Assembly (NCBI GenBank): GCA_017399965.1
Contig: JAFQAP010000027.1
Span: 64,632 to 128,631, forward strand
Direction: 5' to 3'
DNA from: Clostridia bacterium
GTDB taxonomy: Bacteria > Bacillota > Clostridia > Oscillospirales > CAG-382
Length of the DNA: 64,000 nucleotides
The notes beneath the pieces were generated by a model that had not been told where the DNA came from, ran no database searches, and saw only the letters and a program-made list of their open reading frames with translations. Position numbers and translations under genes: made by a program. Shown one piece after another: positions 58,380 through 58,649 of the stretch. How positions within the stretch are numbered: position 1 is the stretch's first letter; each line of letters opens with the position of its first letter.

Positions 58380-58398
58380 ACATAATCAGCATTATGTT
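58380..58398. repeat. Left 19-bp inverted repeat (dif-like core site)
   Basis: ACATAATCAGCATTATGTT. It is internally ACATAAT-cagc-ATTATGT. Exact reverse complement of 58631-58649. Confidence 0.9.
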
Positions 58399-58433
58399 AT
58401 AAGCAGTTGGACTAACTCGAAACTACATAGTGC

Positions 58434-58462
58434 ATTATAGCACAATACAGAGATTTTTGCAA
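58434..58462 (-). promoter_or_regulatory. Near-consensus SigA promoter inside the IR-bounded segment, firing leftwards in the present orientation
   Basis: Minus strand: TTGCAA (58462-58457), 17 nt, TGcTATAAT (-10 at 58439-58434 with extended -10 TG). Confidence 0.65.
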
Positions 58463-58584
58463 TACATTTTGTGGAGAAAAGTATGATTTGTAAGAGAATT
58501 GTCGATTTTAATACAGCACAAATAAGCCTTCTCAAACTTAGAAAATGAAAAGGCTTGGCTTTTTATACCCATTTTTAATTGTCA

Positions 58585-58616
58585 GCGTTCACGAATTGAT
58601 CGTGAGCGTTTTTTAT
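58585..58616 (+). terminator. Intrinsic terminator inside the IR-bounded segment (plus strand)
   Basis: GCGTTCACG-aattgat-CGTGAGCGT (two G-T wobbles) followed by TTTTTATTTGT. Confidence 0.6.
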
Positions 58617-58630
58617 TTGTGTCAATATAC

Positions 58631-58649
58631 AACATAATGCTGATTATGT
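58631..58649. repeat. Right 19-bp inverted repeat (dif-like core site)
   Basis: AACATAATGCTGATTATGT is the exact reverse complement of 58380-58398. Confidence 0.9.

Follow-up and report, generated by a model that had tools for sequence, protein, structure and literature searches.

The locus considered here raises the question whether a short non-coding piece of DNA, bounded by inverted repeats, can be turned over by the recombinase encoded beside it and thereby switch the expression of the genes that follow. It lies at positions 58380-58649 of a 64,000-nucleotide stretch of DNA from a Clostridia bacterium (GenBank assembly GCA_017399965.1, contig JAFQAP010000027.1); the whole of this stretch was analysed and is called the window below. 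An original prediction, made from the letters of the window alone, had described the locus as a candidate invertible promoter switch. In this study, we find that it is very probably such a switch (an inverton), which resides in a gut Clostridia bacterium on an integrated mobilizable element. Judged by sequence comparison, this reading is well supported for the family of related loci, and for the window copy we infer it strongly. We observed the anatomy of an inverton, i.e., inverted repeats around a short non-coding segment, an adjacent recombinase gene and, at the level of sequence, an outward-directed promoter. This anatomy is conserved in related loci, the centres of the two repeats covary, and at family level the segment is found in either orientation in close relatives, with both junctions present in a single lineage.

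Anatomy of the repeat-bounded segment

The 19-bp sequence ACATAATCAGCATTATGTT at 58380-58398 (plus strand; left recombination site, IRL) returns as its exact inverted copy, the reverse complement, at 58631-58649 (minus strand; right recombination site, IRR), just as had been claimed, and complementarity reaches 22 nt with one mismatch (58380-58401 and 58628-58649). The starts of the two repeats are 252 bp apart, and the enclosed segment (58399-58630) measures 232 bp. When up to two mismatches were allowed, the 19-mer occurred at just these two positions in the 64-kb window, and 100 dinucleotide-preserving shuffles yielded no match at the same tolerance (0 expected by chance). Each site is built of two 7-bp palindromic arms around an asymmetric CAGC centre, as the original prediction had it, and IRL carries a further T (ACATAAT-CAGC-ATTATGT-T, a dif-like core). 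The original prediction had likened one arm to the dif site of Escherichia coli and quoted its sequence. This sequence, GGTGCGCATAATGTATATTATGTTAAAT, is printed in the literature (e.g., PMC3025954). In a 28-bp dif-type comparison, with the site read as 11-6-11, the inner arms CATAA / TTATGTTA are common to E. coli dif, and the bases of the outer arms are not conserved.

Directly upstream lies the gene for an Xer-like tyrosine recombinase of 281 aa (57507-58352, plus strand), the presumed invertase, which ends 27 nt before IRL. Pfam recognised a catalytic domain (Phage_integrase, 2e-26) and a SAM-like core-binding domain (Phage_int_SAM_1) alone. The absence of an arm-binding domain had been predicted, and alignment to XerA recovered the full catalytic set (R140, K164, H227, R230, H253 and Y262). 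The top NCBIfam models were XerA (151.7 bits, cut-off 220), XerD (126 bits, cut-off 329.6) and XerC (118 bits, cut-off 335), each scoring under its cut-off, as did XerS (61 bits, cut-off 267). Models of FimB/FimE-type invertases gave 30 bits with cut-offs of 221-222, which places the protein outside these families. The nearest solved structures are the XerA-type 4a8e (1e-24) and XerD 1a0p. Homologues fill at least 8000 clusters at E<=1e-20, and the 90% cluster of the protein itself has 624 members. This adjacent recombinase is probably the catalyst of the inversion.

The segment contains a predicted sigma-70-type promoter on the minus strand (58434-58462; TTGCAA-17-TGcTATAAT). Read from 58462 to 58434, the TTGCAA-17-TATAAT hexamers with the upstream TG give 10/12 matches and make up the top promoter-like site within 57000-59200, and the start is predicted near 58427. 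The leftward direction of this near-consensus promoter thus stands as originally described. An intrinsic terminator on the plus strand had also been noticed; it is present (T2, 58584-58620, with an 11-bp stem in the hairpin 58584-58610 and a T-run), and folding added a terminator-like hairpin in front of it (T1, 58524-58566, plus strand; AAGCCTT...AAGGCTT, then a T-run). The statement that the segment is free of open reading frames (ORFs) needs qualification: mechanical ORFs of 45-47 aa exist inside it, but none of the public contigs has a gene annotated there. Between the recombinase gene and IRL, an intrinsic terminator for leftward transcripts was found (58345-58378, minus strand), which consists of a 10-bp stem (58378 to 58355) and the T-run TTTTATATTA. 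The fold of the predicted leftward transcript that contains it reaches z = -4.6; on the plus strand the hairpin 58378-58355 is without a T-run. In Rfam, nothing came near its gathering score over 57000-59200, the top match being the trpB motif (31.6 bits, cut-off 59), which lay over both terminators.

On these grounds, the following mechanism is proposed. The recombinase would bind the two inverted dif-like core sites, exchange strands across their identical centres and turn over the 232-bp segment. In the OFF state, which is that of the window, the promoter would start a minus-strand RNA near 58427 that crosses the left site and ends at the terminator 58378-58345 after ~80 nt, while T1 and T2 would stop rightward read-through from the recombinase gene and so insulate the cargo. 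Inversion to the ON state would bring the -35 element to 58567-58572 and the -10 element to 58590-58595, the latter position agreeing with the arithmetic of the original prediction. The transcript would then pass through the right site into an operon that encodes helix-turn-helix (HTH), zinc-ribbon, SPFH and DUF6591 proteins, and T1 and T2 would face the other way. The predicted promoter is probably active, and its orientation would set cargo expression; in flipped molecules its start is predicted near 58602 on the plus strand. For the flipped window, the predicted left junction on the recombinase side is GGCTATG-ACATAATCAGCATTATGTT-GTATATTGAC, and the predicted right junction on the cargo side is TCCAACTGCTTAT-AACATAATGCTGATTATGT-TGCGG. 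No usable ORF spans the junctions of the window flipped in silico.

Conservation and orientation among related loci

Flanking DNA was collected for ~60 loci (numbered with the prefix L below). Where the recombinases are 60-92% identical to that of the window, the order is kept: recombinase stop codon, usually a hairpin, a site, a segment of 230-265 bp, the inverted site and cargo. The arms of the sites are near-invariant across lineages, (A/G)ACATAAT...ATTATGT. The four central bases vary among lineages, yet 10 of 11 lineages have the same four in both sites of a locus, namely CAGC in the window and in L039, CAGT in the L014 type, TAGC in L016, CCAC in L022, CGGC in L024/L025, CCGA in L027, CGAT in L021, CTGC in L061 and CCTC in L069. 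The sole mismatch concerns L055-59, where one site has CCGC and the other CGGC. In general, strand exchange by tyrosine recombinases requires an identical overlap region in the partner sites. Therefore, the covariation of the centres is strong indirect evidence that both sites of a locus recombine with each other.

The segments of different lineages are alike by just ~40-75%, but their ends are conserved. All lineages possess a near-consensus, mostly extended -10 promoter that points outward 25-50 nt from one repeat, and one or two terminators on the opposite strand at the other end of the segment. Equivalent promoters occupy the same segment end on the minus strand in L016, L022 and L027 and on the plus strand in the flipped L021 and L055; in L055 they are tandem (TTGTCA-17-TGcTATAAT and TTGTAA-16-TGcTATAAT). 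The stem of T1 is kept in L016, L022 and L025 despite altered loop and flanks, and counterparts of T2 are present in L022 and L025. In five lineages, the first cargo gene begins 13-28 nt after the right repeat with a good ribosome-binding site ahead of it, which leaves no room for another promoter. Hairpins equivalent to the leftward terminator were detected in L016, L021, L022, L055 and L061, and none in L024/L025. It had been suggested that the leftward promoter could produce antisense RNA to the recombinase gene. Such control is unlikely, because this strong terminator (stem 58378-58355 and T-run), kept in most relatives that have the switch, intervenes between the left site and the gene; the hairpin seems to be placed to shield the recombinase gene from antisense transcription.

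Homologues that carry the segment in the opposite orientation, which the original prediction had proposed to look for in databases, were found in L055-59, L061-63 and L021. In L055-59 (five separate assemblies; sites at L055:2236 and 2519), the recombinase is 91.5% identical to that of the window and the segment is inverted: in the alignment with the window the middle high-scoring segment pair (HSP) is reversed (E 4e-31), and after flipping in silico a single HSP of 493 nt is obtained. The segment of L061-63, where the recombinase is 88% identical, is likewise inverted and aligns as a single 469-nt HSP once flipped. L021 (recombinase 75% identical) shares its methyltransferase cargo with L025, and BLAST aligned these two loci in three pieces, of which the middle piece runs in reverse (E 2e-14). 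When the L021 segment was flipped in silico, the pieces joined to one alignment of 710 nt. In all these ON loci (L021, L055-59 and L061-63), a plus-strand promoter faces the cargo, and the cargo gene starts ~20-30 nt past the repeat.

Both junctions were observed within one lineage. The recombinase flank of L065, a fourth assembly of the L061 lineage, is 100% identical to that of L061, and past the repeat L065 reads TAATATAGTTTTT, a 13/13 match to the predicted flipped junction that differs from the post-repeat sequence of L061 itself, TTGCTTTTTGGTC. L065 ends 12 nt beyond the repeat, the point at which a k=31 unitig has to break off when the two orientations coexist. L064 and the L069-lineage member L070, both Logan contigs, end precisely where the repeat meets the segment, which is where a de Bruijn graph would branch if there were two continuations. 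In the window's own lineage, the Logan contigs L040 and L041 begin within the segment, though at other positions than an inversion branch would produce. A fold-back contig, L032:1-2014 (IMGVR_UViG_3300045988_104411), consists of reverse-complemented right flank, repeat, segment, repeat and right flank. Its arms of 873 nt are reverse complements with 0 mismatches, and of the L025-type switch it displays an ON-type junction as well as an OFF-type junction, as would be expected if the reads held both orientations. L032 is given less weight, because a template-switching artefact could also yield a fold-back contig.

Several observations weigh against this reading. Among 22 other assemblies of the cargo type of the window, 0 are flipped, and the window is OFF as well. 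The OFF set (L001-4, L014-20, L035, L039-41, L047-51 and L066-68) stems from distinct samples and covers the CAGC, CAGT and L016/L039 lineages, which shows that OFF dominates for this cargo type. Orientation is largely lineage-specific, so that switching may happen seldom or with a strong bias. A flaw in one site was noted in two of the three ON lineages (CCGC/CGGC in L055-59 and the arm mutation ATTTTGTT at L021:5134), so that L055-59 and L021 may be naturally locked-ON derivatives rather than active switches. The cargo of the window, which unlike that of other lineages has a conserved leader of 178 nt and an HTH regulator of its own, may have an additional, unrecognised promoter. The evidence consists of sequences and assemblies. 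A genome-collection scan with an invariant 35-mer of the leader returned one locus, L020, which is OFF. The flipped-junction pattern gave 0 matches in JGI metagenomes, a result that is uninformative since the orientation-neutral pattern found the element in one contig only.

Uniform OFF does not exclude switching, because consensus assemblies report the majority orientation only. The proposal of an invertible promoter switch thus holds at family level, where both orientations exist, and its description of the present orientation as OFF for the cargo is borne out, the promoter being directed away from the cargo in the window and in the 22 assemblies. In the copies of the window type flipping was not seen, and since all of them are OFF, it is for this copy that we infer switching. 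The window copy is probably still competent to switch, because it has two perfect sites and an intact recombinase.

Module boundaries and alternative explanations

Homology between related loci breaks abruptly at the sites, in the window at 58398/58399 and at 58628-58631. At the left site, it drops from 95% on the left to 32% on the right between the window and L005, a single-site locus of the type called P0010, and from 90% to 38% between L021 and L022. At the right site, it rises from 39% on the left to 98% on the right between the window and L039 (L039/L016 relatives). Three independent homology breakpoints hence fall exactly at inversely oriented Xer-type sites, as looked for in pdif-like modules, and these abrupt breaks suggest that the same sites also mediate module exchange between elements. 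From these comparisons, recombinase, promoter cassette and cargo seem to be exchanged at the sites as modules of their own. It is tempting to speculate that the locus is a two-in-one device, in which the promoter is flipped and the dif-like sites serve in addition as docking points for swapping recombinase, promoter cassette and cargo modules; we regard this extension as tentative and rather doubtful. If true, it would provide Firmicutes mobile elements with an integron- or pdif-like platform for cargo capture, on which captured genes would be phase-variable from the start. The captured genes seen would then be SPFH operons, DNA methyltransferases and a candidate defence gene, and locked-ON derivatives would arise by single site mutations, as in L055-59 and L021.

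The loci of the P0010 type (L005-L013 and L043-L046; Ruminococcus bicirculans and many metagenomes) retain one site within +/-10 kb (L043:10874-10893). Past the site, their DNA shows homology to the left end of the L069 segment, with a leftward promoter-like site kept, and because of this match they look like truncated switches. One protein variant of this type is listed in 848 collection blocks, and the site is followed there by a convergent gene for a surface protein of ~1780 aa.

These breakpoints could also be taken to mean that the sites are mainly module-exchange junctions in the style of pdif modules or integron cassettes, that the 232-bp piece is one small module among others, and that inversion is an occasional by-product, with the window copy effectively static. 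Besides the three breaks exactly at sites, the wide variation of cargo past IRR among lineages, the fixation of most lineages in one orientation and the single sites of the P0010-type loci would fit this explanation. Yet promoter and terminator ends are conserved in segments that are otherwise little alike, so that the segment is not arbitrary cargo, the cargo genes begin directly past IRR without a promoter of their own, and both junctions occur in one lineage with 100% identical flanks. We therefore consider it unlikely that exchange is the main role of the sites, although exchange and switching do not exclude each other. Still less probable is that the recombinase and its adjacent site resolve multimers or cointegrates, in the manner of Cre/loxP, XerS/difSL or ResD/rfsF, and that the second, inverted site is a non-functional duplicate. 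The enzyme is Xer-like and the site dif-like, the gene adjoins partition genes (ParM-like, ParB) and a relaxase gene, and many relatives have a single site directly past the gene, all of which would suit a resolution system. A dead duplicate, however, would not remain perfect or covary in its centres across 10 lineages, the single-site loci resemble truncated switches, and inverted sites cannot resolve dimers. That the repeats are due to chance or are purely structural, as a large terminator or cruciform without any recombination, would agree with the AT-rich and hairpin-rich nature of the region; but 0/100 shuffles had even two matches at up to two mismatches, the repeat pair is conserved alongside the recombinase across the family, and the segment is inverted in relatives, which leaves this explanation with a negligible probability. 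The invertible promoter switch accordingly remains our preferred reading.

Comparison with known systems, mobile element and cargo

The closest precedent for such a switch is found on integrative conjugative elements (ICEs) of Bacteroidales, where modules of invertase, invertible promoter and cargo have been grouped into invertible promoter-antibiotic resistance gene (IP-ARG) classes (Yan et al., 2022; PMC8748976). Resistance gene switches of this type were reported in Bacteroidales only (PMC8748976). In both cases, a dedicated tyrosine recombinase gene is followed by a short repeat-bounded promoter segment and variable cargo, and both reside on an integrated mobile element in gut bacteria. 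Jiang et al. (2019) reportedly dealt with such modules as well. In contrast to the Bacteroidales modules, the host here belongs to the Clostridia, the promoter is of the sigma-70 extended -10 type instead of the Bacteroides -33/-7 motif, the Xer-like recombinase comes with dif-like cores, and an SPFH/zinc-ribbon operon takes the place of resistance genes.

The fimS element of E. coli with FimB/FimE and the RecV switches of Clostridioides difficile likewise involve a promoter segment of ~200-300 bp that is inverted by tyrosine recombinases for ON/OFF control of an operon. The likeness to fimS extends to the recombinase gene upstream and to an OFF promoter that is directed at the recombinase gene. 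However, one recombinase is present here rather than the FimB/FimE pair, and the 19-bp dif-like repeats stand against 9-bp repeats in fimS. Unlike RecV, which serves many dispersed switches, the enzyme is coupled to one switch and travels with it. With the one-recombinase Xer/dif systems (XerS/difSL, XerH/difH and archaeal XerA/dif), the locus shares a recombinase closest in fold and sequence to XerA, XerD and XerC, a gene beside the site and a core with the CATAA-N6-TTATG inner arms of dif. In contrast to these systems, two inverted sites lie 252 bp apart on an integrated element, rather than a single direct-repeat site on sister replicons, and the outcome would therefore be inversion and not dimer resolution. 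In addition, every Xer equivalog cut-off was missed, and nothing indicates control by FtsK. Blackwell and Hall are said to have described the pdif modules of Acinetobacter plasmids, in which Xer-type sites of inverse orientation flank the module. In both cases, homology between different elements is lost exactly at such sites. The present locus differs from pdif modules in having its own recombinase, centres matched within the pair and, instead of a resistance gene, a conserved cassette of promoter and terminators.

In the hCom2 survey of a defined gut community (PMC11892184), inverton group 139 comprises 33 invertons of ~255 bp, 32 of them in Clostridia, from 17 strains. Nearly all lie beside a tyrosine-type recombinase (invertase group 35), and in Clostridium sp. 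D5 and Intestinimonas butyriciproducens the reads themselves revealed flipping. By its size, its host class and its link to a recombinase, the group fits the switch family of the window; group 139 may be the same family. A literature search with the sequence string returned unrelated papers only.

The locus is thus of a known kind, a recombinase-linked invertible promoter, and is distinguished by dif-like sites, matched but variable centres, abundance on mobile elements of gut Clostridia and module breakpoints. Knowledge of invertible promoters on mobile elements has so far come mainly from Bacteroidales, and the locus defines a switch family for mobile elements of gut Clostridia, the hallmarks of which are the site rule (A/G)ACATAAT-NNNN-ATTATGT with matched centres, a portable promoter cassette and diverse cargo. 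Members of the recombinase family abound in human-gut metagenomes, and single sequence variants occur in hundreds of assemblies. Switching would explain some of the contig breaks and fold-back contigs in metagenome assemblies, and hidden ON/OFF heterogeneity of cargo expression is predicted. Potentially, the compact pair of recombinase and site, with its programmable spacer, could be developed into a tool.

The first ~49 kb of the window hold chromosomal genes, e.g., for UvrC and a Clp-type ATPase. The integrated mobilizable element extends from ~49.8 kb past the right end of the window. Its genes at 49772-57201 encode a TnpX-like large serine recombinase (49772-51484), TnpW, ParB, a MobA/VirD2 relaxase and a NikA-like protein, and further a ParM-like actin, a Cys-rich VLP protein and a 298-aa protein with a sigma region-4 motif; they are followed by the tyrosine recombinase gene, the repeat-bounded segment and the four-gene operon. 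A second inversion upstream of the recombinase gene was considered and dropped, since the minus-strand 298-aa gene of the window is unrelated to the plus-strand gene for a 301-aa protein that neighbours the recombinase in relatives. Megablast of 57400-59100 gave no match among PLSDB plasmids and GenBank phages.

A conserved 13-nt motif, AATCATACTTTTC, was found in two copies that form a perfect inverted repeat, one on the plus strand 46 nt upstream of the recombinase start codon (57456-57468) and the other within the segment, 14 nt ahead of the -35 element on the strand of the promoter (58476-58488, minus strand). The form (T)CATACTTTTC stands at -46/-47 of the recombinase start in the window, L014, L005, L021, L022 and L025, with the remaining upstream DNA unrelated in places, and the copy within the segment inverts along with it in L021, L055 and L061. 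It is found twice per element in the window, L005, L014, L021, L022, L025, L055 and L061. The pair may represent a site for a shared regulator or accessory factor, or a promoter element.

The cargo operon of the window is encoded on the plus strand and, according to Pfam, comprises an HTH_26 regulator (58828-59037), a zinc-ribbon membrane protein (59061-59780), an SPFH/Band_7_1-GYF protein (59800-61158) and a DUF6591 protein (61224-62402). PADLOC found no match on it. The same operon type follows the switch in L001-4, L014-18, L035 and L047-49, and the shorter loci L066-68 reach its HTH_26 and zinc-ribbon genes only. In other lineages, the cargo consists of Eco57I-type methyltransferases (L021, L024 and L025), the PADLOC candidate defence gene PDC-S31 (L022) or other unknown genes (L069). 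The SPFH proteins of L055 (2562-3707) and L061 (2639-3763) are distantly related to that of the window (59800-61158), with 25-26% identity. The presence of SPFH/Band_7_1 proteins, often with zinc ribbons, as cargo in three lineages points to a recurring functional link to the switch. In L054:1-1210 (IMGVR_UViG_2565956546_000001), the methyltransferase cargo of L021/L025 was seen without a switch, downstream of a conventional promoter and beside a divergent ORF; cargo modules therefore exist independently of the switch.

The cargo of the window is preceded by a leader of 178 nt (58650-58827, plus strand) that is near-invariant among relatives. No plus-strand promoter with 9/12 matches was found in this leader by the promoter scan. 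It holds a weak hairpin (58684-58701), its overall fold being not significant (z = -0.6), and a 17-nt palindrome, CAACTCTCAAGAAGTTG, at 58717-58733. The HTH_26 protein encoded at 58828-59037 may use this palindrome as its operator.

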